Shown here one piece after another: positions 14,744 to 51,586 of a DNA stretch of 64,000 nucleotides. A program made the position numbers and the translations under genes. Positions within the stretch are counted from its first letter, which is position 1. Every line of letters starts with the position of its first letter. This DNA is from Acidimicrobiia bacterium (lineage in GTDB: Bacteria > Actinomycetota > Acidimicrobiia > Spongiisociales > ZC4RG35). Under the pieces are notes generated by a model. The model searched no databases. It worked only from the letters and a program-made list of their open reading frames with translations, and was not told the origin of the DNA. Location of the stretch: NCBI GenBank assembly GCA_965216445.1, contig OZ244166.1, forward strand, positions 498,565-562,564. The letters run 5' to 3'.

Positions 14744-14791
14744 TTTCTGTACGCACAGGCGGCCATATATGGCCGCCTGTTCCTAAGGAAG
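14744..14791 (-). repeat. 48-bp dyad repeat, copy 1
   Basis: Minus strand CTTCC-TTAGGAACAGG-CGGCCATATATGGCCG-CCTGTGCGTAC-AGAAA, 2 bp after the stop of the S41 gene. It contains a perfect 26-bp palindrome at 14755-14780. Confidence 0.85.
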
Positions 14792-14793
14792 CC

Positions 14794-16170
14794 CTAATTC
14801 AGCGAGGAGGCCAGTGCAGTGACTGCTTCGGCGTCCATCTCGGGGGTGAAATCAGCGGGGACATCAGGGGTGACCCCGTCGCCACCAAAGTCATGCCCGC
14901 CTGGTGTGACCCACCGAGCGATGGTCACCTTGAATGCTCCACCGTTGGAGAGCGAGAATTGCTGTTGGACGGTGTTCTTGCCGAATGAGTTCTCACCGGT
15001 CACGGTTGCCCTGCCCCGTTCCTGAAGAACGGCGGAAACTACTTCCGATGCGGAAGCGGAACCGCGATTGACGATAACCACAACAGGTATCTCTTCCGGG
15101 ACCAGAACCTCACCCGTTACCGGGAACGACCTGTCGTTGTCCGGACTCTGAGTTATGACAACGTCGCCGTCGGGTAGAAAGATCGACGTAACTTCAATCG
15201 CGGTGTCGAGGAGGCCGCCGGGGTTATTCCTCAGGTCGAAAACCAACTCGTTGATCCCGGCTTCCAGCAGCTCCTGAATTGCCTCTTCGAGCTGTTCGTC
15301 GGCGTTGTCGCTGAAGATGTTGAGGGCGACATATCCGACATCTCCGAACTGATCGCTCTGAACCACAGGGATCACAACGGCAGCCCTGGTGATAGTCACG
15401 TCAAAGGTGCTGCCGGAGCGTTCTACTTTGAGGAGAACATCGGTGCCCGCTGGACCTCTAACAGTGGCTGTGACTTCGTCGAGTGTCCATCCGAGGATGT
15501 CCTCGCCATCGACCCCGACGATGATGTCTTCGCTCAAGATTCCGGACGCCTCGGCGGGGCTCCCCTCGATAGTAGAGACGATGATCAGCCGGCAGGTCTC
15601 GGAGATCGTGGAGCACTGGGGGCTCCCTTCGGTGATGGTCGAATCCTCCGCCGTCACCAGAGCTCCGATACCTTCGATCTGGCCCTCCTGTTCCTCTTGG
15701 ATGAGATCCACAGCCGCGGGGTCCAGATAGACCGAGTTCGGGTCCAGGGCTTCTGCCATACCGCGAACAATCGCCTCGGCGCCCTCAAAGCTGTCTTCGG
15801 CTTCGTCTGGCAGAACCTCGCACGTGGCGGCGAACGTCGGTGAAGGAAGTGCACAAAGTAAGTCGCTTGTCGCCGTGGAGCCGTCGAGGTTGATCACCGA
15901 AGCGGTAGCCGCTTCGGCCAGGGTCAGGTCGGCGACTTCGTCGACGTAGTTTCGGTTGATGATGTCATAAGCCTCGCAAACGATCGAGACGTCGTCATCA
16001 GCGTCGGCGCAGCCCACGGATTCGACCCGACGACCGTTTTCAGAGACGGATGTGCTGGTCTCCACGACCTGGCTCGTACTGGTTTGGTCCGAGGTCGTCG
16101 AGCTAGCGCTGTCAACGCAGGCGGTCAGCACAAGGGCAAGGGATATCAGAATCGGTGTTGTCTTGTTCAT
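14794..16170 (-). CDS. S41 family (CtpA-like) carboxy-terminal protease, lipoprotein
   Basis: LTAC lipobox, PDZ region, DLRNNPGG, SASASE, SFGKNTVQ. Confidence 0.9.
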   Translation of the reverse strand: MNKTTPILISLALVLTACVDSASSTTSDQTSTSQVVETSTSVSENGRRVESVGCADADDDVSIVCEAYDIINRNYVDEVADLTLAEAATASVINLDGSTATSDLLCALPSPTFAATCEVLPDEAEDSFEGAEAIVRGMAEALDPNSVYLDPAAVDLIQEEQEGQIEGIGALVTAEDSTITEGSPQCSTISETCRLIIVSTIEGSPAEASGILSEDIIVGVDGEDILGWTLDEVTATVRGPAGTDVLLKVERSGSTFDVTITRAAVVIPVVQSDQFGDVGYVALNIFSDNADEQLEEAIQELLEAGINELVFDLRNNPGGLLDTAIEVTSIFLPDGDVVITQSPDNDRSFPVTGEVLVPEEIPVVVIVNRGSASASEVVSAVLQERGRATVTGENSFGKNTVQQQFSLSNGGAFKVTIARWVTPGGHDFGGDGVTPDVPADFTPEMDAEAVTALASSLN

Positions 16171-17540
16171 TAAGAATTCTGGAGGGCGAAGTTCACGAGA
16201 TCTTCCGGGCTGGCATCGGTGGGCAGTTCGACGACACGGTCGGGGACCAGCCCGCCATCCACCACCGACGTGCCGTTCGGCGTTGTCCAGTGGGCAATCG
16301 CGACGTGGAATTCTCCGCCGTTTCTGAGCTCGAATGGTATCTGCACCGCGTTCTTACCGAAGGTAGGTTGTCCGATAATCACCGCACCACGGCGGTCGCG
16401 AAGGGCCCCAGCAAGAATCTCCGCCGCTGAAGCGGTGCCCTCGTTGACGAGTACGAGCAGACGTGGGCTTGTGACCGGCGCTCCGCCTTCGGCGCTATAG
16501 GTGAATTCGCCCTCGGGGCTTTGTGTGTGGAGGATCGGCCCATCGGCGATGAACTGGGATGCGACGTTGACAACTGCGTCGATCAAACCGCCCGGGTTGT
16601 CGCGCAGGTCGATCACGATCGTCCTCGGTCCTGCTGCCATAAGTGCCCCGACGGCCGAGTCGACGATGAAGGGGATGTCGAAAGAGAAGTCGGGGATGCG
16701 CAGGTAGCCAACCCCATCGACCGGTAGCTCAACCTCAGCGGATGGGAATTCCAATTCCGCTCGCGAAACAGTCACGTCGACGGCTGTTCCGTCTCGTTCG
16801 AGGGACAGGACGACATCGCCTGTCTCGTCACCGCTGATTTGGGTTGCGGTTTCGACAAATCCCTGGCCGATGACAGAGTTGCCGTCCACACCTGTGATGA
16901 TGTCGCCTGGCATGAGTCCGGCGGCAGCGCCCGGGTTGCCTTCCAAAACGAAGACAATGCGGAGTTGACATACCTCGGCGATCTGGGTGCATTTCGACCC
17001 AGCTGCGTCGGTGGCATCGAGAAGAATCCCGACACCCGCTACAACACCATCGGACCTGAAACCTGCAGCTGATTCCGGATCGATGTACCACGTGAAAGGA
17101 TCCAGGCCGCGGTCGATCATCGCGGTGACTGCAGCTTCGACGGCTGGCCCCACCGGGAGGAGTTCGTCCTGGACTCGCTGTTTGAGAACGTCACACAGGT
17201 CTGCAAAAGCCGCGTCCGGTATGGCGCAGAAGAACGTTCGCGGTGGATCCTCAGTGTCGGTGCTCTCAAACTCCTGTGCGGCTGTCGATGCAATCGCAGC
17301 AAGCGCAGTTATGTCAACGGGGCCGTCTACATACCATTCATCGAGGAGTTCGATCGTTTCGCAAAGCGTGGAAAACGTGACTGGAGGCGCACCGCATCCT
17401 TGGACCTCCATGGGGAGATCCAAGCTCGTCGACGTCGTCGAGGACACAGGTGGCAGGGTCACCTGCTGCGTCGGGCTGGTGTCAGTTTGCGGGGAACACG
17501 CAGCTGCCACGACGGTGAGTGTCAGCAGAAGACGGCGCAT
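16170..17540 (-). CDS. S41 family (CtpA-like) carboxy-terminal protease, lipoprotein (paralog)
   Basis: AAAC lipobox, DLRDNPGG, TASAAE, TFGKNAVQ. Confidence 0.9.
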   Translation of the reverse strand: MRRLLLTLTVVAAACSPQTDTSPTQQVTLPPVSSTTSTSLDLPMEVQGCGAPPVTFSTLCETIELLDEWYVDGPVDITALAAIASTAAQEFESTDTEDPPRTFFCAIPDAAFADLCDVLKQRVQDELLPVGPAVEAAVTAMIDRGLDPFTWYIDPESAAGFRSDGVVAGVGILLDATDAAGSKCTQIAEVCQLRIVFVLEGNPGAAAGLMPGDIITGVDGNSVIGQGFVETATQISGDETGDVVLSLERDGTAVDVTVSRAELEFPSAEVELPVDGVGYLRIPDFSFDIPFIVDSAVGALMAAGPRTIVIDLRDNPGGLIDAVVNVASQFIADGPILHTQSPEGEFTYSAEGGAPVTSPRLLVLVNEGTASAAEILAGALRDRRGAVIIGQPTFGKNAVQIPFELRNGGEFHVAIAHWTTPNGTSVVDGGLVPDRVVELPTDASPEDLVNFALQNS

Positions 17541-17582
17541 GGTTCATCATTATGCGACGAGCGATTGGTTACCGTCCGTCTT

Positions 17583-18653
17583 GTGAGACTACGAGTACAT
17601 CTCAGAGACCCCGAGGGCGGGTCACAGATTCGAGACATTGTGGATGGCCGATGGATCGAGCCGACAGGAATAGCTGACGAGACCATCGGACAGGATTCTT
17701 ACGCGATACCCGGGCTGATTGACGCTCATGCTCACCTCGCTGCTCCTATTGGCCAAGATTGGAAGACGGATACCTACGAGAATGCCGTGTCAAGGGCACT
17801 CCAGGCCGTCACCAACGGTGTGATGTTTATCTTCGACAAGGGCTGGTCCAACCTTGACACCGTGAGGATTCTCGAAGAGGTGAGCCCGGAGCAACGCCCC
17901 GACATTCAGGCGGCTGGAATCATCAACGCTGTCGAAGAGGGCTACTGGCCCGACTTTGCTCACGAATTGACCGAAGCGACATTCGAATCCGGCATCCGGC
18001 GGTCAATTGAAGAAGGCCGGGGATGGGTGAAGCTCGTCGGCGACTGGCCGCGGCGGGGCCGGGGACCGGTGGCCAATTTCGATGAAGATCAGTTACGTCG
18101 CGCTGTCGAGTTGGCAGAAGCCGCCGGAAGCAGGGTCGCCATCCACACAATGGCCCGCGAAGCACCGTCGATGGCGGTCAGGGCCGGTGTTCATTCAATT
18201 GAACACGGCTTGTTCCTGGACACCGATGACCTGGAGGCGCTGGGGTCGCGATCGGGGATGTGGGTACCGACAATTCTCCGGATGGAGGCCGTCGTCGAAC
18301 AACTCGGGGCGGAGTCGTCGGGTGGCAAGCTCCTGGTAGAAGGGTTGGACAACGTGCGACGTCAAATGGAGTTGGCAGTCGAGGCTGGAGTCCATGTACT
18401 GGCTGGAACCGACGTGACCGTTGGAACTCACGACGTCGCTCTCGAAGCCGAGAAGATGATCGAGTACGGCCTCCCGATAGAACTGGCATATCGGTCGGTC
18501 ACTTCGGCTGGCTATCTCGCCGGAGGCAGGTCCGATGGTTTCGAGGTTGGGGAACCCGCCAATGTTGTTCTGTTGCGTACCAGTCCGCTTGAGGACTTCA
18601 CAACGCTGGCTCATCCAGAACGGGTCATCAGAATGGGGCGCGTGTTGAGATGA
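17583..18653 (+). CDS. Metal-dependent amidohydrolase
   Basis: IPGLIDAHAH, VAIH, SIEHG, LAGTD. Start set to GTG 17583 to avoid overlapping the divergent gene. Confidence 0.85.
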   Translation: MRLRVHLRDPEGGSQIRDIVDGRWIEPTGIADETIGQDSYAIPGLIDAHAHLAAPIGQDWKTDTYENAVSRALQAVTNGVMFIFDKGWSNLDTVRILEEVSPEQRPDIQAAGIINAVEEGYWPDFAHELTEATFESGIRRSIEEGRGWVKLVGDWPRRGRGPVANFDEDQLRRAVELAEAAGSRVAIHTMAREAPSMAVRAGVHSIEHGLFLDTDDLEALGSRSGMWVPTILRMEAVVEQLGAESSGGKLLVEGLDNVRRQMELAVEAGVHVLAGTDVTVGTHDVALEAEKMIEYGLPIELAYRSVTSAGYLAGGRSDGFEVGEPANVVLLRTSPLEDFTTLAHPERVIRMGRVLR

Positions 18654-19225
18654 ATCTGATTCTTGCTTCGGGCTCACCGCGTCGAAAGGAGCTCTTGGAT
18701 TCGCTCGGCCTCAGCTTCGATGTGCACGTCCCCAACGTGGATGAGACCAGGCATCCAGATGAGATGCCTGGTGTTTACGTGGAACGAGTGGCCCGGCTGA
18801 AAGCCTCGTCCGTGGAGGATGCTGATGCCATCGTTCTCGCCGCCGACACCACGGTCGTGTTGGAAGGTCGGATTCTCGGGAAGCCGGGACACCCCGAAGA
18901 GGCGAGGTCGATGTTACGTCGGCTATCGGGGGCAACCCATGAGGTATTCACCGGAGTAGCCGTAAGCCGTCGGGAAGACTGTTACTCCGTAGTGGCGACA
19001 ACCGACGTAACGATGATCGAAATGACAAACGAGGAAATCGCCTCCTACGTGGAATCAGGGGAGCCCATGGACAAAGCCGGTGCGTATGCACTCCAAGGCA
19101 AAGGTGGCATCTATGTCGAGAAGGTCGTCGGATCTCCTTCCAACGTCATCGGACTTCCCATCCATCTCATTCCCCGACTTCTGAGTCGTGTTGGTGTGGA
19201 AATTTCCGATTTCGGGTCTCGTTGA
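18650..19225 (+). CDS. maf: Maf family nucleoside triphosphate pyrophosphatase
   Basis: LILASGSPRRKELL, LAADT, GKP, DKAGAY, NVIGLP. Confidence 0.95.
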   Translation: MNLILASGSPRRKELLDSLGLSFDVHVPNVDETRHPDEMPGVYVERVARLKASSVEDADAIVLAADTTVVLEGRILGKPGHPEEARSMLRRLSGATHEVFTGVAVSRREDCYSVVATTDVTMIEMTNEEIASYVESGEPMDKAGAYALQGKGGIYVEKVVGSPSNVIGLPIHLIPRLLSRVGVEISDFGSR

Positions 19226-19255
19226 TTGGCCACATCCCGACTAGCTTGGAACGTC

Positions 19256-20215
19256 ATGCGCCGACTCATACCTGCTGTTTGCCTGCTTCTCGTTGCTGCC
19301 GCCTGTGGCGGCGACGAAGGCGCGGAAACCACAACATCAGCTTTGGAAACCACTTCCTCCACAACGCCTGAGACGACGACGAGTACGGTCGCAGACACGA
19401 CCACAACAGTCGCTGAGACAACCACGTCGACCGAGGGGACGACAACCACGACTGAACCCCCCGGCAACTGGGCTGCTGAACCTCTCGTTGTCTCCGAGTT
19501 CGGCGCTCTGGGCTGGTGGGACGGCGGTAACTGGGTCCAGGTAGATGAGCTGACCGCCCTTCCGGTTTCGGGAGGAGAGGACTATCAGGTGGCATTCCTG
19601 GGGTTGGAAGCCGGGGTTACCGGTGGCCCTGAGACATTGTTATGCGAGCCGTTGAACAATCCCGGTGTAGAGCTGAGCAACACCGACATCCTCGGAGGTT
19701 TCCCGGGCCCGAGTGGCGTTGCCATCTCCGCTCCTTGGGAACTGGTTCCCCACTTTGTCCAAGATGAAGTCGACGATGGCACCTACTCGGATTTCGCCCG
19801 CCCTCTTCTGGCTTCGCGGGGACTCGACGTTGAGAATCCAGTCATCAAACAGGTCGTCCGGTTCGATATCGAAGGCGATGGTGTGAATGAGGTGATCGCC
19901 GTAGCCGAAGACATCGCTGACGACGGGCTCTTCGCCCAGGTCGGCGACTATTCGCTGGCCTTCCTTCGCAGGGTTGTTGATGGCGAGGTCCAAACCGCCA
20001 TCCTTGGTGATTCGGTTGTGACGCCGCCCGATCCTGGTGTGACCCCATTTGTCCTTTCGTACGCGGTTGCAGCTATTGCTGATCTCAGCGGGGACGGGAA
20101 GATGGAAATCGTCATGAACTCGGTGTATTACGAGGGCGTGGGTTGGGGTGTTTGGGAGTACGTCAACGACGATCTCGGACCGGTGCTTCAGATTCAGAGC
20201 GGCTGCGGGGCCTGA
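19256..20215 (+). CDS. Hypothetical lipoprotein with a Thr-rich linker and FG-GAP-like DxxGDG motifs
   Basis: AAAC lipobox; FDIEGDGVNE and ADLSGDGKME. Confidence 0.75.
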   Translation: MRRLIPAVCLLLVAAACGGDEGAETTTSALETTSSTTPETTTSTVADTTTTVAETTTSTEGTTTTTEPPGNWAAEPLVVSEFGALGWWDGGNWVQVDELTALPVSGGEDYQVAFLGLEAGVTGGPETLLCEPLNNPGVELSNTDILGGFPGPSGVAISAPWELVPHFVQDEVDDGTYSDFARPLLASRGLDVENPVIKQVVRFDIEGDGVNEVIAVAEDIADDGLFAQVGDYSLAFLRRVVDGEVQTAILGDSVVTPPDPGVTPFVLSYAVAAIADLSGDGKMEIVMNSVYYEGVGWGVWEYVNDDLGPVLQIQSGCGA

Positions 20216-20631
20216 TGGAAAATCCGTTCACTGACCGGGTCACGTACGTCGGTCATACGAGAATTGAGCTGACCGAAGCCTCCGTCGATCGCGTTGTCGG
20301 GCAGATCGAGATCGACGACATCCACCATCAGCCTTATGGAGTGGTTCATGGCGGCGTGTACGCCACACTGGTCGAGACACTCGCATCGACAGGTGCCGCC
20401 ATCTGGGCCATGGGCAACGATATGGGTGGAGCCATGGGAGTTTCGAATACAACTGACTTCATCCGGGCAACATCGGAGGGGGTCATCGAAGGTGTCGCCA
20501 CTCCGATTCACCGTGGTCGCAACCAACAGCTGTGGGAGGTGGCGGTCACCCGGAAGTCGGATGGAAAGCTGGCCGCTCACGGTCAGGTCCGTCTCCAGAA
20601 CGTCCGGGATACAGACGCCGTCGCCAAGTAG
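20215..20631 (+). CDS. PaaI family thioesterase
   Basis: HHQPYGVVHGGVYATLVET, PIHRGRNQQLW. Confidence 0.9.
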   Translation: MENPFTDRVTYVGHTRIELTEASVDRVVGQIEIDDIHHQPYGVVHGGVYATLVETLASTGAAIWAMGNDMGGAMGVSNTTDFIRATSEGVIEGVATPIHRGRNQQLWEVAVTRKSDGKLAAHGQVRLQNVRDTDAVAK

Positions 20632-20636
20632 ACAAC

Positions 20637-21761
20637 ATGACCGACAACCTGGCAGCCAACCAATGGAGCCGCCAGCTACTACAACGCGATCGCCCACTTC
20701 GCGTGGTCGAGGTCGTTGAGCTCGCCGGCGGGATCTACAGCACCGCACCGACCAGTTATCTGTCATTTGCAGCGAGAATCCCCGGTTTCGAACGCTCCCA
20801 ACTGGACAAAGCGTTGATGGAAGATCGGTCCCTCGCGAGGCTCGCCACACTGCGCGGGTCAGGCTTTCTGATACCGATCGACAAGGTCGATGTCGTGTTG
20901 GCAGCTGAGGATCGAGTCTCCTGGTATCAACGGCATGCAGACAAGATTGCCGGCCCGAAGAAGACAGAATTGTGGCGAGAACGAATCATGGATCTGCTCG
21001 GAGAAGGCCCGCTTCCGGCGAGGACGATCCGTCGGGAATTGGACGTCACAGGCAGGGAAGCCGAAGCGCTGCGCTACGTACTCTCTGCGATGACCCAAAG
21101 CAGGGACCTCGCGGCAGCCACACAACCCGGGGGATGGCGGAGCAACCAGTACTCGTACGCCTTGTGGTCGCAGTGGTTCCCAGATCATCCGCCGGCATCT
21201 GTCGACCCCGAGGCAGCTCGAGCCGAGGTGGCCAGGTGGTATCTCCATGGCCATGGACCAGGATCGGTCGACCACTTCGCTTGGTGGTCTGGACTGAAGA
21301 AATCCAACGCCCGGTTGGCGTTGGATTCGGTCGGTGTAGTCGGTGAAGCAGGTCAGTACGACCTCCCGACACGTCCGGGGACGGCCGAGCCCTCGGGCCT
21401 TCGACTACTCCCGATCTGGGACACCGCATTGGTCTCGCCAAAGGGACGACGTCGCATGGTCGAGTCGGGCCACGAGAGGTTCGTGTACGACTCGTCCGGA
21501 AATGTCACCTCCACAATTGTGCTTGATGGAGCAGTCGTCGGCGTTTGGGACCGGGGTGGCGACGATGAGTTGCTGGTGGTCAAGGCGGCGGGTTTCGAAC
21601 CTTTGGAAGCCTCATTTCGAGCTGACATTGAGGAGGAGGTGGAGATCCTTGCCAGGTCCGTCGGCGCAAGGGACTGGGAAGTGCAATTCGTCGAAAGGCC
21701 AATCGACCTCACCACAGCGTCTCGGAATCGGTTCATGTCCCCGTTGTCGGAGCCGAGCTAG
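20637..21761 (+). CDS. HTH_42 / AlkZ-YcaQ-like DNA glycosylase family protein
   Basis: YLSFAAR, YLHGHGPGSVDHFAWWSGL, LRLLPIWD, IVLDGAVVGVW. Confidence 0.8.
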   Translation: MTDNLAANQWSRQLLQRDRPLRVVEVVELAGGIYSTAPTSYLSFAARIPGFERSQLDKALMEDRSLARLATLRGSGFLIPIDKVDVVLAAEDRVSWYQRHADKIAGPKKTELWRERIMDLLGEGPLPARTIRRELDVTGREAEALRYVLSAMTQSRDLAAATQPGGWRSNQYSYALWSQWFPDHPPASVDPEAARAEVARWYLHGHGPGSVDHFAWWSGLKKSNARLALDSVGVVGEAGQYDLPTRPGTAEPSGLRLLPIWDTALVSPKGRRRMVESGHERFVYDSSGNVTSTIVLDGAVVGVWDRGGDDELLVVKAAGFEPLEASFRADIEEEVEILARSVGARDWEVQFVERPIDLTTASRNRFMSPLSEPS

Positions 21762-21800
21762 CTGCCCGAAGTTCCGCTGGTGACGTAATCTGGTCTGCTG

Positions 21801-22913
21801 ATGCTTCAGATCGGGAATCTCCAAGTCGACCCTCCGGTGGTTCTGGCACCCATGGCTGGTGTCACCAACGCGCCGTTTCGCCGTCTCTGTCGCGAATACG
21901 GTGCTGGTCTCTATGTATCGGAGATGATCGGGGCTCGAGGTCTGGTGGAGGGCAACGAGAAGACACTGGCGCTGGCTCGTTTCGCTCCGGATGAATCGCC
22001 ACGGTCCATACAGCTCTACGGAACCGACCCGGGTGCATTAGGCGAGGCAGTTTCGTTCCTCGTCTCAGAGATTGGCGTCGATCACATCGACATGAATTTC
22101 GGCTGTCCGATGGGCAAGGTCACGAGGCACGGCGGAGGTGCTGCCCTTCCATGGAAAAGAAGCCTGTTCAGACAGATAGTTCGCTCTGCAGTGGAGAATG
22201 CCGGATCCACCCCGGTGACAGTGAAGTTTCGGAAAGGCATCGATGACGATCACCTCACATTCATCGAGGCCGGTCTCGCCGCTGAGGATGAGGGAGCGGC
22301 GGCAATTGCGCTCCACGCACGTACGGCTCGTCAGCTCTACTCGGGCAAGGCAGATTGGTCAGCGATTCGCACTCTCAAGGAATCCATCCAGTCGGTTCCC
22401 GTTCTGGGGAATGGTGATATCTGGACGGCACAAGATGCTCGGCGAATGATGGATGAGACAGGGTGCGACGGAGTCGTGATCGGGCGGGGCTGTCTGGGTC
22501 GACCCTGGCTTTTCCGCGACCTGTCGAACATGTTCGCTGGTGAAGAGTCCGTTGCGCCCCCGAACCTGGGTGAGGTCGGAGAAGTCATGGTCCACCACGC
22601 GGCGCTGCTCGTTGAGCACTTTGGTGAGCACATGGGGATCAGGCTCTTTAGAAAACACCCGTCTTGGTATCTGAAGGGCTTTCCAGCAGGTCCGCGGTTG
22701 CGCGATCGATTCGCAAAAGTCAACTCGGTCGACGAAGTCCGCGAGTTGGTCGATCAACTCGACCCAACAATCCCATTCCCTGAGGAGGCCAACCACATGG
22801 TTCGCGGCCATTCCCACGGTCCTCGTCCGGTCCGTCTACCCCACAACTTCCTTGCTACCCAAGACACGGAGTCGCTCTCGCGGGACGCTGACCAGGTAGT
22901 AAGCGGCGGCTAG
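21801..22913 (+). CDS. dusB: tRNA-dihydrouridine synthase B
   Basis: LAPMAGVT, IDMNFGCP, VTVKFRKG, GNGDI, GRGCLGRPW. Confidence 0.93.
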   Translation: MLQIGNLQVDPPVVLAPMAGVTNAPFRRLCREYGAGLYVSEMIGARGLVEGNEKTLALARFAPDESPRSIQLYGTDPGALGEAVSFLVSEIGVDHIDMNFGCPMGKVTRHGGGAALPWKRSLFRQIVRSAVENAGSTPVTVKFRKGIDDDHLTFIEAGLAAEDEGAAAIALHARTARQLYSGKADWSAIRTLKESIQSVPVLGNGDIWTAQDARRMMDETGCDGVVIGRGCLGRPWLFRDLSNMFAGEESVAPPNLGEVGEVMVHHAALLVEHFGEHMGIRLFRKHPSWYLKGFPAGPRLRDRFAKVNSVDEVRELVDQLDPTIPFPEEANHMVRGHSHGPRPVRLPHNFLATQDTESLSRDADQVVSGG

Positions 22914-22918
22914 TTCTC

Positions 22919-23037
22919 TTTCCTTAGGATTAGCGGGCCATATATGGCCGGATTCCTGAATAGAACAAAGATGCCCGTGAGTGCCACGGAACCGATACGC
23001 GAAAGCGGCCAGATATGGCCGCATATACCTAAGGAAC
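22919..23037. repeat. Inverted pair of 48-bp dyad repeats (copies 2 and 3) between convergent dusB and hutG
   Basis: Copy 2 is 22919-22966 on plus: TTTCC-TTAGGATTAGC-GGGCCATATATGGCCG-GATTCCTGAAT-AGAAC. Copy 3 is 22990-23037 on minus: GTTCC-TTAGGTATATG-CGGCCATATCTGGCCG-..., with a degenerate distal end; it contains the hutG stop. Confidence 0.85.
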
Positions 23038-23946
23038 GGAAGTTCGGTTCCGCTCAGTGAAGCCGGCCGCGGCGGAGAGAATCAGGTGAGTCATGGTGTC
23101 AAGCGTCAAACCGTTGATGTCAGCCTCAGCATCGACCTCGACGAAGTCCATCGCTGAAACAAGCGGGTGGTTTGCGCACATGCGAACGCCCATGGCGAGG
23201 TCTCGAACCGTCAGCCCACCCGGTCGCGCCCCCGGACACGCCGGCGCGTAAGAGGCGTCAAGCACGTCGATGTCCACATCGACGTAAATCACATCAACCC
23301 TTCCAGCCAAGTGGCTTAGCCCAGCGGCAACTGCGGCCACCATCCCGTCTTTCTCCAGGTCCTCGACAGTCACGACCGTTATCCCGGCGTCGTCGCACCA
23401 GCTCCGATAGGCAGCCGAATTGGCGAAGGAGTGAATTCCGATTTGGACGACGTTCGATCCGGGAAGTTCGTCCTCCTCGATCAGACCGCGGATCGGTGTT
23501 CCATTGGCCGGTCCGAGGTCGAGGGTCCGGACATCGTGGTGGGCATCGAACGTAAGGACGCCCACCCGAGTGATGTCCTCGTGACATGCTCTCACCAGCG
23601 GTCGGGTGATCGCGTTGTCTCCTCCGAGAAACAGCGAAAGTGGAGTCTGCGGGAGCGATCTCGCCTGGCGTTCTACTTCGATAGGCATCTCATGCATGTC
23701 GAGGTCGCTCACGACCCAGTTGCCCTCGTCAAAAACTTTGACGTCAGCGAAGTCAACCCCCCATTCACCGTGGAACGTCGAGAAACGACCAAATCGGTCC
23801 CTCACTCGCAGCGGCGTCAGGTCCGCGCGACTCGGAGACAGGGAAGCGCTGGACGACGGGACCCCCACAACCCTTATGTCTGGTTCGGCAGCCTCCTGGG
23901 CCAGCCACACGTCGGCTCTTGGCCAGAACGGGTCGTTGATCGGCAT
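23029..23946 (-). CDS. hutG: Formimidoylglutamase (arginase/ureohydrolase family)
   Basis: GGDNAIT, DAHHD, NGTP, DVDIDVLD; translationally coupled to hutU. Confidence 0.8.
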   Translation of the reverse strand: MPINDPFWPRADVWLAQEAAEPDIRVVGVPSSSASLSPSRADLTPLRVRDRFGRFSTFHGEWGVDFADVKVFDEGNWVVSDLDMHEMPIEVERQARSLPQTPLSLFLGGDNAITRPLVRACHEDITRVGVLTFDAHHDVRTLDLGPANGTPIRGLIEEDELPGSNVVQIGIHSFANSAAYRSWCDDAGITVVTVEDLEKDGMVAAVAAGLSHLAGRVDVIYVDVDIDVLDASYAPACPGARPGGLTVRDLAMGVRMCANHPLVSAMDFVEVDAEADINGLTLDTMTHLILSAAAGFTERNRTSVP

Positions 23947-25607
23947 CAGATGTCCAACATCGGGATGTCGACCCCACGTTCCTTGGCGACAGTCCGCGCG
24001 ATTTCATACCCGGCGTCGGCATGGCGCATGACGCCTGTGCCGGGGTCGTTCGTGAGAACCCGTTCGACCCTCAGGGCGCCCTGGTCAGTTCCGTCGGCGA
24101 CCACCTGGGCTCCCGAATGTATCGAGTTTCCTATTCCAACGCCTCCACCGTGGTGGACGGCCACCCAGGCTGCGCCCGAGGACACGTTGACCATCGCGTT
24201 GAGGATCGGCCAGTCGGCGACAGCGTCCGACCCGTCCATCATTGCTTCGGTCTCCCTGTACGGCGATGCAACAGACCCCGAGTCGAGATGATCTCGCCCG
24301 ATCACGATCGGAGCACTTACATCTCCGGACGCAACGAGTTCGTTGAACTTCAGCCCCGCCAGGTGACGTTCGCCATAGGAGAGCCAACAGATTCGGGCAG
24401 GCAATCCCTGGTAGTGCACCTTCTCCCCGGCCATCCGGATCCACCGGTGCAGCGGTTCGTTGTCGGGGAACAGTTCGAGCAGGGCGCGATCCGTAGCTGC
24501 GATATCGGCCGGGTCACCACTGAGGGCTACCCATCGGAACGGGCCGGAGCCCTCGGAGAAGAGGTCGCGTATATAAGCCGGGACAAAGCCGGGATATGAG
24601 AATGCGTCTGTGAACCCTGCAGTCTGTGCCTCTCCGCGAAGGTTGTTGCCGTAGTCAAAGACCTCGGCGCCAGCTCCTTGGAATCCCACCATGGCTTCGC
24701 ATTGCGTCGCCATCGATTCACGTGACGCCTTGATGTACGTGTCAGGGTCGTCGTCTCGAAGAGACAACGCCTCGTCGAGGCTGTAGCTACTTGGGATATA
24801 CCCGTAGAGCGGATCATGGGCCGATGTCTGATCGGTGACGATGTCGACATCGAGCCCCATCTTCAGTAACTCGGGAAAGACATCAGCGGCGTTGCCGAGG
24901 AGGCCAATCGAAACTGCCTCTCGGTTTGCTTTTGCTTCCAGGGCCCGCTTGACCGCCTCCCTGGTGTCGGTGTAGCTCTCATCGAGGTACCCCGTCTCGA
25001 GCCTTCTTTCGATTCGGTGTGGGTCGACATCCACGCACAAGGCAACGCCGCCGTTCATGGTTATGGCGAGTGGCTGTGCGCCACCCATTCCTCCCAGCCC
25101 GCCGGTGAGGGTGAGAGTCCCGGCCAGGGTCCCGCCGAACTTCTGGTCGGCGATCGCCACGAATGTCTGATATGTACCTTGGAGGATCCCCTGGGTGCCG
25201 ATGTAGATCCACGATCCGGCCGTCATTTGGCCGTACATCATCAAACCCTTCGTTTCCAGCTCCCAGAACTTGTCGAGCGTGGCCCACTTCGGAACGAGCA
25301 ACGAGTTGGCAATGAGGACCCTTGGCGCCATGTCGTGGGTCCGAAACACACCGACCGGTTTGCCGGATTGGACGAGCAAGGTCTCGTCGTTCTCGAGCCG
25401 TTGCAGCGTGGCGACAATCGCGTGGAGCGATTCGAGATTCCGCGCAGCCTTACCCCTACCGCCGTAGACGATGAGATTCTCGGGGTCTTCGGCAACGTCG
25501 GGGTCGAGGTTGTTGAGGAGACACCGCAGGGCTGCTTCCTGAAGCCACCCTTTGGTGTTGAGGTCGGTCCCGTGGGGTGCGTGCAGGGGGAAAGTGAGAT
25601 CAAGCAT
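23946..25607 (-). CDS. hutU: Urocanate hydratase
   Basis: [49 protein letters not shown]. Confidence 0.97.
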
Positions 25608-25636
25608 CGATGAGGAGCCTAGATACATCCGAATCT

Positions 25637-25684
25637 GTTCTAAACGGAAATCCCGCCACTATTGGCGGTGTATTCCTTGGGAAC
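25637..25684 (-). repeat. 48-bp dyad repeat, copy 4 (variant core)
   Basis: Minus strand GTTCC-CAAGGAATACA-CCGCCAATAGTGGCGG-GATTTCCGTTT-AGAAC. Same geometry, with a compensatory change in the core; 6 bp after the permease stop. Confidence 0.75.
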
Positions 25685-25690
25685 GCGGTT

Positions 25691-26500
25691 TTATTTCCTC
25701 AGGAGGCCGTCGAGTCGTTTGTTGGCGATGAGGCCTCCGACAATGCCCATGGTCAGGAGGAAGGCGACGTGGCCGAGCATCGACCAGTCGAGGACACCGA
25801 GTGCGAACCCTCTGAGCAGTTCGACTCCGTGGTAAAGCGGTGATATCCAGATCAGCTGCTGAAAGGCTTCCGGATACGCCTCGATCGGGAAGAACGTGGC
25901 AGAGAACAGGAACAGCGGCATGGTCACCAGGTTGACCAGGTCGAAGTCCTGCCAGGAGCGCATGTATGTCGTGGCAGCGAGACCGACGGAGCCGAAGGCG
26001 AAACCGATCAGGAATGAGCCTGGGATCGTCAGTATGGCCGTCCATGAGTTGGTCAGCCCCATCGCCACCATCACGACGAGGAACGCGATCGAGTAGAGCA
26101 GCCCTCTCAGCAAGGCCCAACCGATTTCACCAACGGCGATGTCCATGGGCCGCATCGGCGTGGTGAGAATCCCCTCGTAGACATTTCCGAACTTGAGCTT
26201 GAAGAAAATGTTGAATGTGGTTTCGAGGACCGAGCCGTTCATTGCCGAGGCGGCCATCAGCGCCGGTGCGACGAAAGCGGTGTATGAGACCGGGATCCCC
26301 CCGGGCCCCGTGAATTCCGGAACGAGCTGGGCCAACCCAATCCCCAGCGAGAAGAGATAGAAGACAGGTTCGAAGAAACCAGTGAGAATGATCTTCCAGT
26401 ACCGCCGGTACGACAGGTAGTTCCGTTCCCATATCCGCTGGGCCCGGAATGGGCTCATCTTCCCAATTGGGGTCAAACGTGTCGGTGCGGAGACGCTCAC
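25691..26500 (-). CDS. ABC-2 permease (NodJ/DrrB-like)
   Basis: FEPVFYLFSLG, YEGILTTP, PLFLFSATFFP. Confidence 0.88.
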   Translation of the reverse strand: MSVSAPTRLTPIGKMSPFRAQRIWERNYLSYRRYWKIILTGFFEPVFYLFSLGIGLAQLVPEFTGPGGIPVSYTAFVAPALMAASAMNGSVLETTFNIFFKLKFGNVYEGILTTPMRPMDIAVGEIGWALLRGLLYSIAFLVVMVAMGLTNSWTAILTIPGSFLIGFAFGSVGLAATTYMRSWQDFDLVNLVTMPLFLFSATFFPIEAYPEAFQQLIWISPLYHGVELLRGFALGVLDWSMLGHVAFLLTMGIVGGLIANKRLDGLLRK

Positions 26501-27285
26501 TTGCGCAACCTCCGGTCGAGCAACCTCATCGCCAGGAACAGCCCGACAAGCATCATCGTGACGAGATAGGCCACATGGACCCACACCGGGGTGGCCGTCA
26601 CAACTCTGGTGTCCACACCGGGTAGGGCGAACTTCCGCACTAGCTCAACACCGTGAAAGAGCGGAGTGGCGTAGGCGAGGGGTTGGAGAAAACCGGGAAG
26701 TTGGCTGATCGGGAAGAAGGTGCCCGAGAACAGGAAGAGCGGGATGATCCCAAAACGGAAGAGCGTCGACAGGCTGGTGTCGTCCTCACGCGTAACCGTC
26801 CATGCGGTGATCGCCGTAGTGAAGGCTAGGCCCGTCAACACCCCCGGTGGAATCGCCTTTAGGGCTGGACCGAGGTCTATGGCATCGAGCATTGTCGCGA
26901 TGAGAGCAAAAACGAGCAGAACAAACGAGAGACGGACGATCGACCACAGAAACCGGCCCACCACGATGTCGGCCGGGCTTATCGGAGTTGAGATCGCACC
27001 CTCGAAGCTCTTCCGCCATTTGATCCCAGCCATCACTGGGAAGGCCCCGTCGGCAGCTCCGTTTTGCATCGCTGAGGCTGCCATCAATCCGGTGGCGATA
27101 AAGACCAGATAGCTAATCCCGAGGTCGGAGTCACCGGAATCAACGTAAGAACCCAGGCCAAGACCCATCGCGGTCAGGAACAGCAAGGGATTGACGAAGG
27201 AGCTGATCGCGGTGCCTCGCCAGGTCCGTTTGTATCCGAGCAACTCGGATTCGACGACTCTTATCGGGCCTCGCAATGCGGTCAT
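26497..27285 (-). CDS. ABC-2 permease (NodJ/DrrB-like)
   Basis: NPLLFLTAMGLG, PLFLFSGTFFP, PLFHGVEL. Confidence 0.88.
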   Translation of the reverse strand: MTALRGPIRVVESELLGYKRTWRGTAISSFVNPLLFLTAMGLGLGSYVDSGDSDLGISYLVFIATGLMAASAMQNGAADGAFPVMAGIKWRKSFEGAISTPISPADIVVGRFLWSIVRLSFVLLVFALIATMLDAIDLGPALKAIPPGVLTGLAFTTAITAWTVTREDDTSLSTLFRFGIIPLFLFSGTFFPISQLPGFLQPLAYATPLFHGVELVRKFALPGVDTRVVTATPVWVHVAYLVTMMLVGLFLAMRLLDRRLRK

Positions 27286-28211
27286 CAGTCGATCAGTCTC
27301 CGGCCCGTCAGTTTGAGGAACACGTCTTCGAGAGTGGAGCGTCGAACCAGGACTTGCTCGGGGTGAAGGCCGCGACGGTCGACCTCGTGCTGGGTCTCCT
27401 CGGCATCGTCTGTGTAGAGCAAGACACGGTCGGCGAGCACCTCGGAGCGTTGGGCTACTCCGTCAAGTTTCAGGACGTTTTCATCTTGAGTGCCCGCTTC
27501 GAACCGGAGTTCGACGACCTCGCGTGGAGCATGGGTTTCGATGAGGCGGCGTGGCGAGTCCTCGGCCACGATCTTGCCCTGGTCCATGACAACCAGCCGA
27601 TCGCAGAGTTGTTCGGCTTCATCCATGTAGTGGGTGGTGATGATCAGGGTGGCTCCCTGCTGTTTGAGCCGATACAGACGATCCCAAAGCACATGACGAG
27701 CCTGAGGATCGAGCCCGGTGGTCGGTTCATCGAGGATTACCAGGTCTGGATCATTGATCAGTGCCCGAGCAATGGTCAGCCGGCGCTTCATCCCACCGGA
27801 TAGCGACTCCACCTGGTCTTTGCGGCGTTCGGTGAGCTGGGCGAATTCGAGGAGCTCATCGATACGTTCGTTTATCTCTGCGCGACTCATGTCGTGGTAG
27901 CGCCCGTAGATGTAGAGGTTCTCGGCGACCGTCAACTCCAGGTCGAGATTGTCTTCCTGGGGCACGACCCCCAATCGCTGCCGGATGGCGCGGCCTTGCG
28001 TCGTCGGGTCCAACCCAAACACGGTCATCTTCCCTTCGGTGATGGGGCTGACCGTTGTGATCATCTTCATGGTCGATGTCTTGCCCGCTCCGTTGGGGCC
28101 GAGGAATCCGAATGCTTCACCCTTGTGAATGTCGAAGTCGATGGCGTCGACAGCTGTGAAGTCCGCAAACTTCTTGGTGAGGCCGCGTGCCTCTACGAGT
28201 GATTCTGTCAT
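27285..28211 (-). CDS. ABC ATP-binding protein (NodI/DrrA-like)
   Basis: GPNGAGKTS, LSGGMKRR, ILDEPTTGLDP, THYMDEAE. Confidence 0.93.
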   Translation of the reverse strand: MTESLVEARGLTKKFADFTAVDAIDFDIHKGEAFGFLGPNGAGKTSTMKMITTVSPITEGKMTVFGLDPTTQGRAIRQRLGVVPQEDNLDLELTVAENLYIYGRYHDMSRAEINERIDELLEFAQLTERRKDQVESLSGGMKRRLTIARALINDPDLVILDEPTTGLDPQARHVLWDRLYRLKQQGATLIITTHYMDEAEQLCDRLVVMDQGKIVAEDSPRRLIETHAPREVVELRFEAGTQDENVLKLDGVAQRSEVLADRVLLYTDDAEETQHEVDRRGLHPEQVLVRRSTLEDVFLKLTGRRLID

Positions 28212-28278
28212 CGAGTTGGTGAGGTTAACCGGGATGTGTGACGGGAAATCGTCGAATTATCCGCTCGCCGTGCGGGTT

Positions 28279-28767
28279 TCACATCCATCTGACAAGTCGG
28301 TCAGTTTCTTTTCGACCACCGAATCTGGCTGGTGCCGCGTCTGTCGACGGATATCCGAGAGCAACCGCGTAGCGTGCCGTCTGGCCATGTTCCAGATTGA
28401 GGAGATCGGCGATGGCCTCAGGTTTGTGGAGTGTGATTGGACAGCTTGCGACGCCAATTGCCTTGGCTGCGAGCATGATGTTCTGCGCAGCTCGCCCAAT
28501 GTCGAACTCATATCCGTTGGATTCTTGAACGAGAACGATGGCTGCAGTGGCATTGTGTATTGGGTCGGTGAAGCTGCCGCCCCTGGCCAGCTGGTCGAGT
28601 TGTGCCCGATCGGTGAACACCAGGAACGACCAGTTCTGGGTGTTCTTTGAGCTCCCGGTCCATCGTGCCGCCTCGATGATTCGCTCCAGATCCTCCCGAC
28701 TCACCGGTTCGTCGGTGTACTGGCGTATTGCTCTCAGTTTCAGGATGAATTCGTAGGTATCGGTCAT
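28279..28767 (-). CDS. Nitroreductase family protein
   Basis: RAIRQY, EAARWTGSSKNTQNW, DIGRAAQNIMLAA. Confidence 0.88.
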   Translation of the reverse strand: MTDTYEFILKLRAIRQYTDEPVSREDLERIIEAARWTGSSKNTQNWSFLVFTDRAQLDQLARGGSFTDPIHNATAAIVLVQESNGYEFDIGRAAQNIMLAAKAIGVASCPITLHKPEAIADLLNLEHGQTARYAVALGYPSTDAAPARFGGRKETDRLVRWM

Positions 28768-28834
28768 GACGCCAGCCTAAGCCAATTTCGAGGCGACCCG
28801 TCCTGGCCTGGTCCCAAACAGCGCGTCCAGAAAC

Positions 28835-28866
28835 AGAAAAGCCCCGGGCGGGACCGGGGCTCTTCT
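28835..28866 (-). terminator. Intrinsic terminator after the fasciclin gene
   Basis: GCCCCGG/CCGGGGC stem flanked by AGAAAA and TCTTCT. Confidence 0.75.
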
Positions 28867-28882
28867 GCTCTGAGTGGATTTC

Positions 28883-29482
28883 TTAGCTAGCGGGTGGAAG
28901 GAGGACCGCGTCAATCACATGGATTACGCCGTTGCTTGCGAAGATATCCGTTTGGAGGACGTTGGCCTCGTTGACCATGACAGCGTCTCCGTCGATGGTG
29001 ACGAGGACCGTTGCGCCGTTGACTGTCGCCACCTCTTCACCGTCGAGTCCGAGCACCGTCTCAGCCGGTGCCTCGAGCGGAAGAACGTGATAGGTGAGGA
29101 TTGAAGTCAGGGTCTCGGTGTCAGCGAGCAGCTCTTCGGCTGTCAGGTTTAGTGCGGCCAGTGCGGCTTCGAACGCTTCATCAGTGGGTGCGAAGACCGT
29201 AAATGGCCCTTCACCGCTCAGCGTGTCGACCAAACCGGCAGCCTGAACCGCAGCAACGAGGGTGGTGAAGTCTTCTGACGCGGATGCGACATCGACAATT
29301 GTCCCCATCTCGTCCATCTCTTCATCGTCCATGTCCTCGTCTTGCGTGGCTTCGGCCGCAGTGGTGGTGGTCGATTCGAGAGCTTCTGTCGTGGTTGTCT
29401 CGTCAGCTGAATCACTGCCACAAGCGGCGACGACGAGGGCCAGGATGGCCATTAGCGATAGGAGTCGGACTCGGTTTCTCAT
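28883..29482 (-). CDS. Fasciclin-domain lipoprotein (MPT83-like)
   Basis: VAAC lipobox, GPFTVFAPTDEAF, ILTYHV, SNGVIHVIDAVL. Confidence 0.92.
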   Translation of the reverse strand: MRNRVRLLSLMAILALVVAACGSDSADETTTTEALESTTTTAAEATQDEDMDDEEMDEMGTIVDVASASEDFTTLVAAVQAAGLVDTLSGEGPFTVFAPTDEAFEAALAALNLTAEELLADTETLTSILTYHVLPLEAPAETVLGLDGEEVATVNGATVLVTIDGDAVMVNEANVLQTDIFASNGVIHVIDAVLLPPAS

Positions 29483-29524
29483 TGGTTTCCTTTCGGAGTT
29501 GGTTGTTTGGGTTGTTGGTGCTTA

Positions 29525-29551
29525 TTCGGACCAGACATCGAGATCGGATGG
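29525..29551 (-). promoter_or_regulatory. SigK-type ECF promoter of the fasciclin gene
   Basis: Minus strand CCATCC-N16-CCGAA, 42 nt upstream of the ATG; resembles the mycobacterial SigK promoter of mpt70/mpt83. Confidence 0.6.
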
Positions 29552-29591
29552 AGTTGATCCGGTTAGCGGTGGAGTCGGTATCGTCCAGCAG

Positions 29592-31292: not shown

Positions 31293-31357
31293 AACGCTTC
31301 CGTTGACGGCCTCGGTTATCTTGGGGCCGACTGCTTCAGAAACTAGGAGACCAGGCC

Positions 31358-32083
31358 ATGCCCACCCCACATATCAGCGCAGAAAAAGGCGAGTTCGCAC
31401 CTTCGATTCTCCTCCCCGGTGATCCGCTGCGGGCCAAACACATCGCTGACAATTTCCTTGACGATGCGACGCAGGTGAATGCGGTTCGAAACATGTTCGG
31501 ATACACCGGCTCGTATGACGGTGTTCCGGTCTCGGTGATGGGCACCGGTATGGGCATCCCCTCGGCGTCGATCTATGCAACGGAGTTGGTCACCGAATAC
31601 GACGTGGAACGTTTGATCCGTGTCGGTTCTTGTGGCGCGGTGACCACCAAGGTTGACGTACGCGACGTCATCCTGGCGATTGGCGCCTGCACCGACTCCG
31701 GTGTCAATCGGGTGCGCTACGGCGACTACGACTTCGCCGCGACTGCGGACTACTGGCTCCTGAAAGCCGCTGACCAGGCTGCCAAAGCCAAGGGGATCGA
31801 TGTCAAGGTGGGCAATGTGCACTCCGCCGACTTGTTCTATAACCCCGATGCCGAGGCATTCGATCGAATGGAGAACATGGGCGTGCTTGCGGTCGAAATG
31901 GAAGCGGCAGGTTTGTACGGAGTTGCTGCAGAGAAGGGGGCAAGAGCCCTGACCATTTGCACAGTGTCTGACCACATCAGGACCGGCGAGGCGACCTCCT
32001 CAGACGAACGCCAAGAAACCTTCAACGAGATGGTTGAAATCGCCCTCGATGCCATCAGAATCGACGTCAACTCGCCTTCCTAA
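31358..32083 (+). CDS. deoD: Purine-nucleoside phosphorylase DeoD
   Basis: [36 protein letters not shown]. Confidence 0.96.
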
Positions 32084-32123: not shown

Positions 32124-32203
32124 GTCATCAAACCCATCTTTTGATGGATGGCGTGGCGTGGCGATCGTCCGTACATTCGCAGCTCACCGAATAGGAGAGT
32201 TCA

Positions 32204-50798: not shown

Positions 50799-50807
50799 CG
50801 AAAGCTA

Positions 50808-51452
50808 TTACCGAGCTTTGTGGAACTCCTGCTGGGGTTTATCCAGGGGCCAAATCTTGAACGACAGTTGCACAATGGGTCCAATGAATAGTGCAAAAGC
50901 AATCGTTCCAACCCCGAAGGTGCCTCCAAGAAGCCAACCGATGGCCAGCACTGCGATTTCGATCACGGTCCTGGTCAACCGGATCGAGGGGCCGTACTTG
51001 GCGATACCGGTCATGAGCCCGTCCCGTGGTCCCGGTCCCAGGTTTGCGGCGATGTAGAGACCGGAGGCAAGGCCGATGATCACAATTCCGGCGACCAGCA
51101 ACGCCACCCGCCAAACCATCGCCTCAGGTGACGGAACGACGAGAGCGAAACCGTCGATAGCCACCCCGATGATCAACATGTTGAGCAAGGTCCCCAGTCC
51201 GTAAGGCTCTTTGATCGGGATCCACAGCAGCAGGACGATCGCGGAGATGATTATCGACCAAATCCCAACCGTTAAGCCGAAACGCTCTGCCAAGCCTTGA
51301 TGAAGCACATCCCATGGGGGGAGTCCAAGCTCTGACTGCAGCATCAGGGCAATCCCGAATCCGAAAGCTGTGAGCCCGATGACTAACTGGGTGATCCGTG
51401 CGGCCAGATTTGGGCCGGAGGTGGGTATCAACAGTTGCTGTTTGGTGGTCAT
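50808..51452 (-). CDS. YczE/YitT family membrane protein
   Basis: LGLPPWDVLHQG, LGPGPRDGLM, GGTFGVGT. Confidence 0.88.
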   Translation of the reverse strand: MTTKQQLLIPTSGPNLAARITQLVIGLTAFGFGIALMLQSELGLPPWDVLHQGLAERFGLTVGIWSIIISAIVLLLWIPIKEPYGLGTLLNMLIIGVAIDGFALVVPSPEAMVWRVALLVAGIVIIGLASGLYIAANLGPGPRDGLMTGIAKYGPSIRLTRTVIEIAVLAIGWLLGGTFGVGTIAFALFIGPIVQLSFKIWPLDKPQQEFHKAR

Positions 51453-51538
51453 GGATGAAGTCGGTTCGTAAGGGGCTAACTTGTCAACACCACTTTCACA
51501 GGGTCACGTGGCAATAGCAAGAGGTTTTGTCTCGTTCA

Positions 51539-51586
51539 GTTCTTTTCTCGATTCCGGCCATATATGGCCGGGTATACCTAAGGAAA
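51539..51586 (-). repeat. 48-bp dyad repeat, copy 6
   Basis: Minus strand TTTCC-TTAGGTATACC-CGGCCATATATGGCCG-GAATCGAGAAA-AGAAC, in the divergent yczE/lutA intergenic region. Confidence 0.85.

Follow-up and report, generated by a model that had tools for sequence, protein, structure and literature searches.

Dispersed palindromic repeats at stop codons in an Acidimicrobiia genome, with a candidate nuclease partner encoded between inverted copies

Copies of the element in the window

The window analyzed here, a 64,000-nucleotide stretch (C1:498565-562564) of the genome of an Acidimicrobiia bacterium (assembly GCA_965216445.1; G000 below), carries six copies of a short dyad element. The element belongs to a family dispersed over the whole genome, two copies of which, outside the window, enclose a gene for a predicted nuclease. 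The genome comprises 2.62 Mb in two contigs, with 58.7% G+C and 94.9% completeness. Genes were called crudely from open reading frames (ORFs), giving 2,551 genes that cover 90% of the genome. All relatives used for comparison are metagenome-assembled genomes (MAGs), 75 to 100% complete, and cross-genome counts are not independent because the genomes are related. One of them (G027) is flagged as unpublished; alignment row L046 and one of the 19 loci outside the genus described below come from it, and no claim depends on it alone.

Direct reading confirmed all six 48-bp copies reported by the initial annotation of this stretch, in position and in sequence, and Pfam bore out the genes that it had assigned to copies 1 to 5. 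Copy 1 (14744 to 14791, minus strand) has the longest perfect stem (11 bp); its TTCC end, at 14791, lies 3 nt from the stop codon of an S41 peptidase gene (14794 to 14796) and its distal end 14 nt from the stop codon of msrA. Copies 2 (22919 to 22966, plus strand) and 3 (22990 to 23037, minus strand) are the left and right arms of an inverted doublet that resembles the REPINs of the repetitive extragenic palindromic (REP) elements and has a spacer of 23 bp (22967 to 22989). The TTCC end of copy 2 falls 6 nt past the stop codon of a Dus gene; in copy 3, which has the degenerate distal box initially described (..ATCGGTT), the TAG of CCTTAGG is the stop codon of an arginase-family (hutG-like) gene. 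Copy 4 (25637 to 25684, minus strand) has the core CCGCCA-ATAG-TGGCGG and lies 7 nt from the stop codon of an ABC-2 permease gene and 8 nt from the start of the urocanase gene. In copy 5 (32076 to 32123, plus strand), the TAA of CCTAAGG (32081 to 32083) is the stop codon of a PNP_UDP_1 (deoD-like) gene. Copy 6 (51539 to 51586, minus strand) is the exception, as it occupies the region between two divergent gene starts, 26 nt upstream of that of a CCG-domain gene, where there is no stop codon.

The core change in copy 4 (CCGCCA/TGGCGG) had been taken for a compensatory substitution. The change is present, but it is not a one-off compensation: a minor flavour with the loop ATAG recurs in about ten copies, so the change marks a sub-family.

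Family size and anatomy of the element

The pattern TTCCYWAGG-N8-GCCA-N4-TGGC occurs at 30 sites in G000 and at none in 40 related genomes, and the reversed pattern gave no sites. A profile built from the 30 exact sites found 37 copies in G000 (E<1e-3), 31 of them outside the window. With respect to the profile, 35 of the 37 are free of insertions and deletions. The same number lie outside ORF calls, and the remaining two fall in the 5' portion of calls that may begin too far upstream. Spacer lengths are fixed and orientation is nonrandom over the genome. In Rfam, no family reached its gathering score anywhere in the window, and positions 22850 to 23100 gave no match even at E<=1. These results uphold the initial view of an undescribed REP-like or miniature mobile element, or of a protein-bound site with nested dyads, that lacks the RAYT transposase of REP systems.

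The element is a unit of 47 nt with fixed geometry, in which three modules stand in fixed register. The consensus of the 30 exact copies reads, block by block, (a/t-rich)CCGC-N, TTCC-T-W-A-GG, AAYA-NN, CGGCCA-[T/A/G]AT[A/G]-TGGCCG and N-TTTYGCGT-NN-AGAA(M), and conservation is limited to the interval from about 8 nt before TTCC to AGAA. The proximal module is a 7-bp palindrome resembling a restriction site, CCTWAGG, often extended to GTTCCTWAGGAAC; its general form is CC-X-W-X'-GG (here TTCC-TWA-GG), and it holds TAA or TAG. The second module is a central dyad on CA-NATN-TG at a fixed position (base i pairs with base 45-i), in which a 6-bp G+C hairpin is possible; its major flavour in G000 is GGCCA-N4-TGGCC and its minor flavour CGCCA-ATAG-TGGCG. 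The third module is a distal AGAA(C) box, whose sequence mirrors TTC at the proximal end. In other lineages, a full mirror copy of the proximal palindrome stands in the distal arm (e.g., GAACCTGAGG...CCTCAGGTTC), and the distal box and outer dyad of G000 are therefore best seen as the vestige of a mirrored first module.

The arms between the modules are mostly not complementary, as had been noticed in the window; the exception is a subset with GGAATCC/GGATTCC distal arms, which pair with the proximal AGGAA. From this lack of complementarity it had been concluded that the element is not an ordinary terminator. The observation holds, but the element may still act as a 3'-end or terminator hairpin, since in the main G000 flavour three to five consecutive T follow the stem. 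Among the traits of an intrinsic terminator, the hairpin and an orientation that follows the genes are present, and the T run is found in the main G000 flavour and is absent from the flavours of sister genomes.

G000 holds three inverted doublets with spacers of 21 to 23 bp. The doublet in the window (22919 to 23037) and that at C1:2558754-2558872 share 82% identity over 119 bp, spacer included. No target-site duplication was found at any tested boundary or k-mer length, with at most 4 of 35 copies sharing even a 3-mer.

Integron attC sites have the consensus RYYYAAC...GTTRRRY; this identity was rejected, as the ends of the element are GTTC...GAAC and its neighbours are syntenic housekeeping genes. 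As a separate observation, the window makes up 2.4% of the genome and holds 6 of the 37 copies, against about 0.9 expected by share; five of them lie within 18 kb, between positions 13600 and 33500, and no reason for this clustering was found.

Placement relative to stop codons

The initial annotation had seen the element attached to gene ends in one orientation, and this holds for the family as a whole. By the crude gene calls, 27 of the 37 copies turn their TTCC end to a stop codon, mostly at -8 to +12 nt. When the greedy choice of genes is set aside, 25 of 37 copies have an ORF of at least 100 codons that stops at -8 to +20 nt from the TTCC end, and 10 of 37 have one that stops there at the AGAA end. 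Docking is confined to the proximal end in nineteen copies and to the distal end in four (one-sided sign test, ~0.001 by hand calculation), and in tandem intergenic regions 14 of 16 copies are oriented with the genes. The same asymmetry is found in the sister genome G006, where 16 of 24 copies have an ORF of at least 70 codons that stops at -9 to +40 nt from the TTCC end, versus 5 of 24 for the distal end. Seven or eight copies, copies 3 and 5 among them, have the stop codon inside the element, and it is then always the TAA or TAG of CCTWAGG. Copy 6 and about seven other copies lie away from gene ends. Orientation relative to replication showed no bias beyond that of the genes themselves (23 of 36 copies with the leading strand). 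A sigma-70, extracytoplasmic function (ECF) or sigma-54 promoter, considered by eye only, was dropped as the copies sit at 3' ends.

A nuclease gene between inverted copies

The initial annotation had suggested looking for copies on both sides of a gene for a nuclease, transposase or recombinase, and one such gene is present outside the window. It is a 308-amino-acid ORF at C1:2287671-2288597, it lies between two inverted copies, and it is the only gene in G000 within such a pair. Its product combines an AbiEi-type winged helix-turn-helix (wHTH) part with a DUF559 nuclease domain. The AGAA ends of the bracket point inward, and the stop codon of the ORF overlaps the downstream copy. The upstream neighbour, on the plus strand, encodes a luciferase-like monooxygenase and ends at the TAA of the element, and the downstream neighbour encodes Cpn60.

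Pfam models scoring above their cut-offs are AbiEi_4 (residues 12 to 59), AbiEi_1 (80 to 173) and DUF559 (240 to 305; 27.7 bits versus a cut-off of 20.6), and REase_MTES_1575 falls under its own. The PADLOC models for AbiEi cover residues 10 to 183 (E 2.7e-29), and NCBIfam gave no match. The AlphaFold2 model (pLDDT 85.6) matches AbiEi (6y8q; E 1e-6) and Rv2827c (1zel; E 1e-3 over 228 columns), and its C-terminal domain matches the homing endonuclease I-Bth0305I (3r3p; TM 0.73 to 0.75 by target length), Vsr (1cw0/1vsr) and NGO0050 (3hrl). Across 23 homologues, residues D241, E252, D254, H259, D268 and R269 do not vary, suggesting that the protein is an active enzyme and not simply a repressor. 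By Pfam, modelled fold and conserved residues, the partner protein belongs with the DUF559/Vsr-like PD-(D/E)XK nucleases, and its activity is predicted.

Two other identities for this locus were considered. The initial annotation had seen no RAYT partner, and the genome agrees: PF01797 has no hits in G000, and the control genomes gave hits. An AbiE type IV toxin-antitoxin system was rejected, as the neighbours are the monooxygenase and Cpn60 genes and AbiEii (DUF1814) is missing; PF08843 has no hits in the 94.9% of the genome represented and none beside the nuclease gene.

The copies could in principle be ordinary miniature inverted-repeat transposable elements moved by a conventional transposase encoded elsewhere. 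Their shortness, their inverted ends (TTC...GAA) and the inverted doublets would suit such elements, which would nevertheless have to move without leaving the target-site duplication sought above; no Y1 transposase is encoded in G000, other transposase families not having been searched, and the sole gene flanked by inverted copies is the nuclease. We consider this origin very improbable.

Orthologues of the nuclease, with 47 to 56% identity, were found in 10 of 12 genomes of the same genus, and at all 11 loci in the genus, that of G000 included, the gene is bracketed by inverted copies in the genome's own flavour. Downstream, the same hairpin follows and, wherever the sequence reaches far enough, the same groEL 3' end. 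The gene is single and vertically inherited in most of the genus. Outside the genus, 17 of 19 loci from other genera, families and orders have the gene flanked by an inverted repeat of at least 9 bp. Across Acidimicrobiia, the best 80 loci from contigs of one genome per species yielded 76 with enough flanking sequence. Comparison of the upstream flank with the reverse-complemented downstream flank scored at least 30 in 68 of these 76 and, in a complement-only control, in none (maximum 27). In the 68 brackets the module CC-X-N-X'-GG has the X.X' pairs T.A (30), C.G (12) and G.C (6); the other 20 depart from the strict form, many as CCTAATG variants.

Two genomes of the genus, G004 and G007, lack the nuclease gene at the groEL-side locus on intact contigs. 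A decayed solo remnant is left in G004; in G007, the upstream stop codon and the groEL-side hairpin have nothing between them. Strict copies number 2 in G004 and 8 in G007, versus 6 to 30 in the eight genomes with both the gene and a countable flavour, a comparison among few, related and incomplete MAGs.

In G012 (L038), G008 (L040) and G002 (L043), an in-frame TGA stands at the second matched residue of the nuclease (W*VGESENRV...); most likely it lies upstream of the real start.

Shared frame and own flavours in sister genomes

Genomes of the same genus share only 67 to 78% DNA identity with the window, and synteny is kept. The search pattern proposed in the initial annotation holds for G000, but the family is wider than that flavour, as its frame extends over the genus and its architecture over the class. 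TTCCYWAGG-N33-AGAA has 30 matches in G000, 15 in G001, 17 in G005, 24 in G006, 8 in G007 and 6 in G010, versus 0 to 2 elsewhere and 0 to 1 in controls; cores in the latter five genomes are of the type CGTMTCA-NATN-TGAKACG. A second version, TTCCGWCGG-N33-AGAA, has 20 matches in G002, 18 in G008 and 20 in G012, and 0 to 1 in the other ten genomes searched, including G000; here the cores are GTGCCA/CGGCCA-NATN-TGGCAC. Length, register and the centre CA-NATN-TG are common to the sister genomes; each genome has its own letters in the stem and in the middle of the 7-bp palindrome. Half-sites vary independently of each other between these genomes.

Genome-specific flavours extend to orthologous sites. 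The permease-urocanase site (copy 4) is occupied in 10 of 11 genomes of the genus, G000 included, each time in the genome's own flavour, and is empty in G003. Over three orthologous sites, mean identity was 0.73 between different sites of the same genome (27 pairs) versus 0.56 between the same site in different genomes (126 pairs). At the msrA-S41 site, G003 is again empty, with the two genes abutting, and in G009 a copy is docked on msrA, in an orientation opposite to that in G000. The deoD site (copy 5) holds the element only in G000 and G009 among the nine genomes with sequence there.

These comparisons bear on two further explanations. According to the first, the copies are cis-acting 3'-end signals (terminators or mRNA-stabilizing structures) under selection, and the protein is merely an autoregulated AbiEi-like binder that has the same sequence as its operator and no role in spreading it. 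Docking and orientation relative to stop codons accord with this, as do the core hairpin, which forms in the folds of all six window copies, the T run of the main G000 flavour and the continued occupation of orthologous sites across the genus; moreover, AbiEi proteins have been described as autoregulating through inverted repeats in their own promoter (PMC7319586). Selection site by site, however, would leave unexplained why about 40 sites share a genome-specific sequence, down to the loop and the nonpairing arms, that differs between species at one and the same site. The T run is missing from sister flavours, copy 6 and some seven others are not at gene ends, and the invariant nuclease residues suggest an enzyme in use. 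We regard this explanation as unlikely, although less so than the one that follows.

The second explanation is that the copies are immobile chromosomal binding sites of the wHTH-nuclease or of another dimeric protein, acting as roadblocks, domain boundaries or hot spots of repair or recombination, with flavours that track drift in specificity. A fixed 47-bp geometry with nested dyads and half-sites that vary independently would fit such a role, and the two halves of the 7-bp palindrome change together (T.A, C.G or G.C in the brackets above), as for a symmetric reader. However, it is implausible that 20 to 40 sites would change in step with a drifting protein unless some process copied them; the msrA-S41 site, empty in one genome and with an independent insertion of opposite orientation in another, speaks against immobility, and 3'-end placement is ill suited to operators. 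We judge it distinctly improbable.

Three observations at these sites stand apart. At the deoD site, the orthologous gene in G004 (L146), G007 (L147) and G001 (L149) ends in TTCCTAAGG, CTCCTGAGG or GTTCTTGAGG, and a different long hairpin comes next, TTGCACAGTGCAAAGGG...CCCTGGTGCACTGTGCA. In G010, deoD ends in ...CGCTCCTAAGAAC and is followed by no element; this end resembles the proximal and distal ends of the element joined together, and it may be a footprint, a target site or a coincidence. The msrA-S41 region of G011 (L156) contains the palindrome GGAACCCTGGGTTT, of the type that forms the proximal module in other orders, and a genome may thus hold more than one flavour.

Other repeats in G000

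G000 encodes two paralogues of the nuclease with 26 to 31% identity (C1:992331-993209 and C1:1585120-1585989), each of which lies between copies of a different repeat, about 50 nt long, aaCCGTTCTGTGA(A/G)G..GG....CC..ACC(C/T)TCAC. Copies of this second family lie on C1 at 353003, 689114/689164, 992250, 993254/993304, 1584962, 1585084, 1586080 and 2312280, a few of them being dispersed beyond the paralogue brackets. G000 therefore seems to hold two enzyme-repeat pairs.

A third repeat, longer and composite, is found on C1 at 270200-271250 (L179), 1976200-1977200 (L180), 248598, 261452, 679103 and 2194302. It contains GGGAACGCTTCGCGTTCCTTAGGAGTTTGGCTTCGCCAACCTCC, shares CGCGTTCCTTAGGA with the 47-nt element, lies in long intergenic regions and is partly tandem (period 132, 1.8 copies, 99% match); Rfam gave no match to it at E<=0.1.

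Comparison with known systems

The textbook example of short repeats that a bacterial genome maintains as a population through a single dedicated enzyme is the REP-RAYT system, which to our knowledge is known almost only from Proteobacteria. REPs carry a 5' GTAG/CGTC tag, which is absent from the 47-nt element. RAYT genes are described as always flanked by two inverted REPs, with which they coevolve; REPs vary in abundance with the rayt gene, and it is as doublets that they replicate (Nunvar et al. 2010, PMC2817692; Bertels & Rainey 2011, PMC3116915). The two systems have much in common: short, species-specific extragenic palindromic repeats; inverted doublets with a short spacer; one cognate gene between two inverted copies, gene and repeats changing together; and no target-site duplication. 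Fewer copies where the gene is missing may be a further likeness, the comparison here covering few, related genomes. They differ in that the partner here is a wHTH-Vsr/DUF559 nuclease and not a Y1 HUH transposase (PF01797, no hits), that there are 37 copies rather than >100, that the repeat is a three-module unit of fixed length and that the host belongs to the class Acidimicrobiia of the Actinomycetota. The system thus works like REP-RAYT, yet it is not a member of that group, because the defining RAYT enzyme is missing.

The C-terminal domain of the protein shares its fold and the invariant E-x-D...H...D set with the Vsr-fold (EDxHD) enzymes I-Bth0305I and Vsr (3r3p, 1cw0, 1vsr). Vsr reads a short CCWGG-type palindrome, and such a site resembles the CC-X-W-X'-GG module of the element. 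Unlike in these enzymes, there is no intron or intein here, an AbiEi-like module precedes the nuclease domain, and the predicted targets are dozens of genomic repeats rather than one homing site. The N-terminal 180 residues match AbiEi antitoxins and Rv2827c (6y8q, 1zel) in sequence and fold. AbiEi proteins are described as binding to inverted repeats located upstream of the gene that encodes them (PMC7319586); in contrast to those systems, G000 has no AbiEii toxin, and a nuclease domain is fused to the AbiEi-like part instead.

Placement a few nucleotides behind a stop codon recalls the stop-proximal REPs of Escherichia coli, where a hairpin repeat has the same position. Work by Liang, Rudd and Deutscher from 2015 reportedly found that a gene is translated less when an E. 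coli REP lies no more than about 15 nt from its stop codon. The present element differs in that docking is end specific and that seven or eight copies provide the stop codon themselves. Among open-access papers and bioRxiv preprints, none was found to connect DUF559 or AbiEi-nuclease proteins to dispersed repeats or to describe REP-like systems in Actinobacteria, and on palindromic repeats at stop codons in Acidimicrobiia only unrelated CRISPR work came up.

Proposed mechanism and significance

We interpret the family as a REP/REPIN-like population of noncoding repeats with a nuclease partner, the copies probably also serving as mRNA 3'-end hairpins, and we hold this reading to be somewhat nearer to right than to wrong. 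We propose the following. (i) The nuclease would bind the elements, its AbiEi module reading the dyads, and would nick or cut in or beside them, with the Vsr-like domain acting at or near the 7-bp palindrome or the centre. (ii) Repair templated from other copies, i.e., gene conversion, would homogenize the family and give each genome its own flavour, even at orthologous sites, and occasional copying would seed new sites and keep the family alive. (iii) Copies may persist behind stop codons where they are harmless, where they carry a stop codon of their own and where they may form a protective or terminating hairpin at the mRNA 3' end. The TAA or TAG in the palindrome could replace a lost stop codon, and transcription of the hairpin with the TTCC end towards the gene would place a stem at the 3' end of the message.

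Several points weigh against this interpretation. First, we infer binding or cutting of the element by the protein, as well as gene conversion or mobility and any RNA-level role, from genomic pattern and predicted structure. Second, the 37 copies are far fewer than in classical REP families. Third, G007 keeps 8 good copies without an orthologue of the nuclease, so that any dependence on the gene would be loose or slow, as judged from few, related genomes. Fourth, the permease-urocanase copy of G000 retains an ATAG-loop core like those of G002, G008 and G012, with identities of up to 0.76, and rewriting or homogenization would therefore be partial. Fifth, many copies in sister genomes have noncomplementary core arms (e.g., CGTCTCA...TGATAGC), so the hairpin is not strictly maintained, and RNA folding z-scores of the six window copies against shuffled sequences range from -0.5 to -5.6. 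Sixth, no presence/absence polymorphism of the element was seen in metagenome contigs from four sequencing runs of the one sample that contains this organism: over positions 13600 to 33500 of the window, none of the contigs skips an element, and breaks occur only inside copy 2, a result that is neutral as to mobility. Of six data sets listed for the organism, none of them RNA, five contain at least part of the stretch, and these four runs are the only ones to contain most of it. Finally, the crude ORF-based gene calls include at least one error, in the upstream neighbour of the nuclease gene, which was corrected. Scanning of metagenome contigs with the G000 flavour gave two chance matches without similarity to G000.

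A bolder form of the nuclease-partner reading can be offered only tentatively, and we would sooner expect it to fail than to hold. Across Acidimicrobiia, a winged-helix/Vsr-type nuclease, rather than a transposase, may curate its own fixed-geometry palindromic repeats by nick-induced gene conversion, a form of homing without an intron, so that dozens of genes come to bear a genome-specific signal just past their stop codons. A repeat-enzyme partnership like REP-RAYT would then have been invented a second time, by an independent mechanism.

The genomic logic of REP-RAYT, with its species-specific palindromes, doublets and one bracketed gene, is found here with an unrelated enzyme and in an uncultured class of Actinomycetota; the strict three-module geometry and the end-specific attachment to stop codons are unusual. 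If the nuclease acts on the repeats, it would represent a new route by which repeats spread and are homogenized, with a natural recognition site of about 47 bp, and the influence of the repeats on mRNA 3' ends would become testable. A function would thereby also be suggested for the AbiEi-DUF559 proteins, which are very common in the Actinomycetota but uncharacterized.

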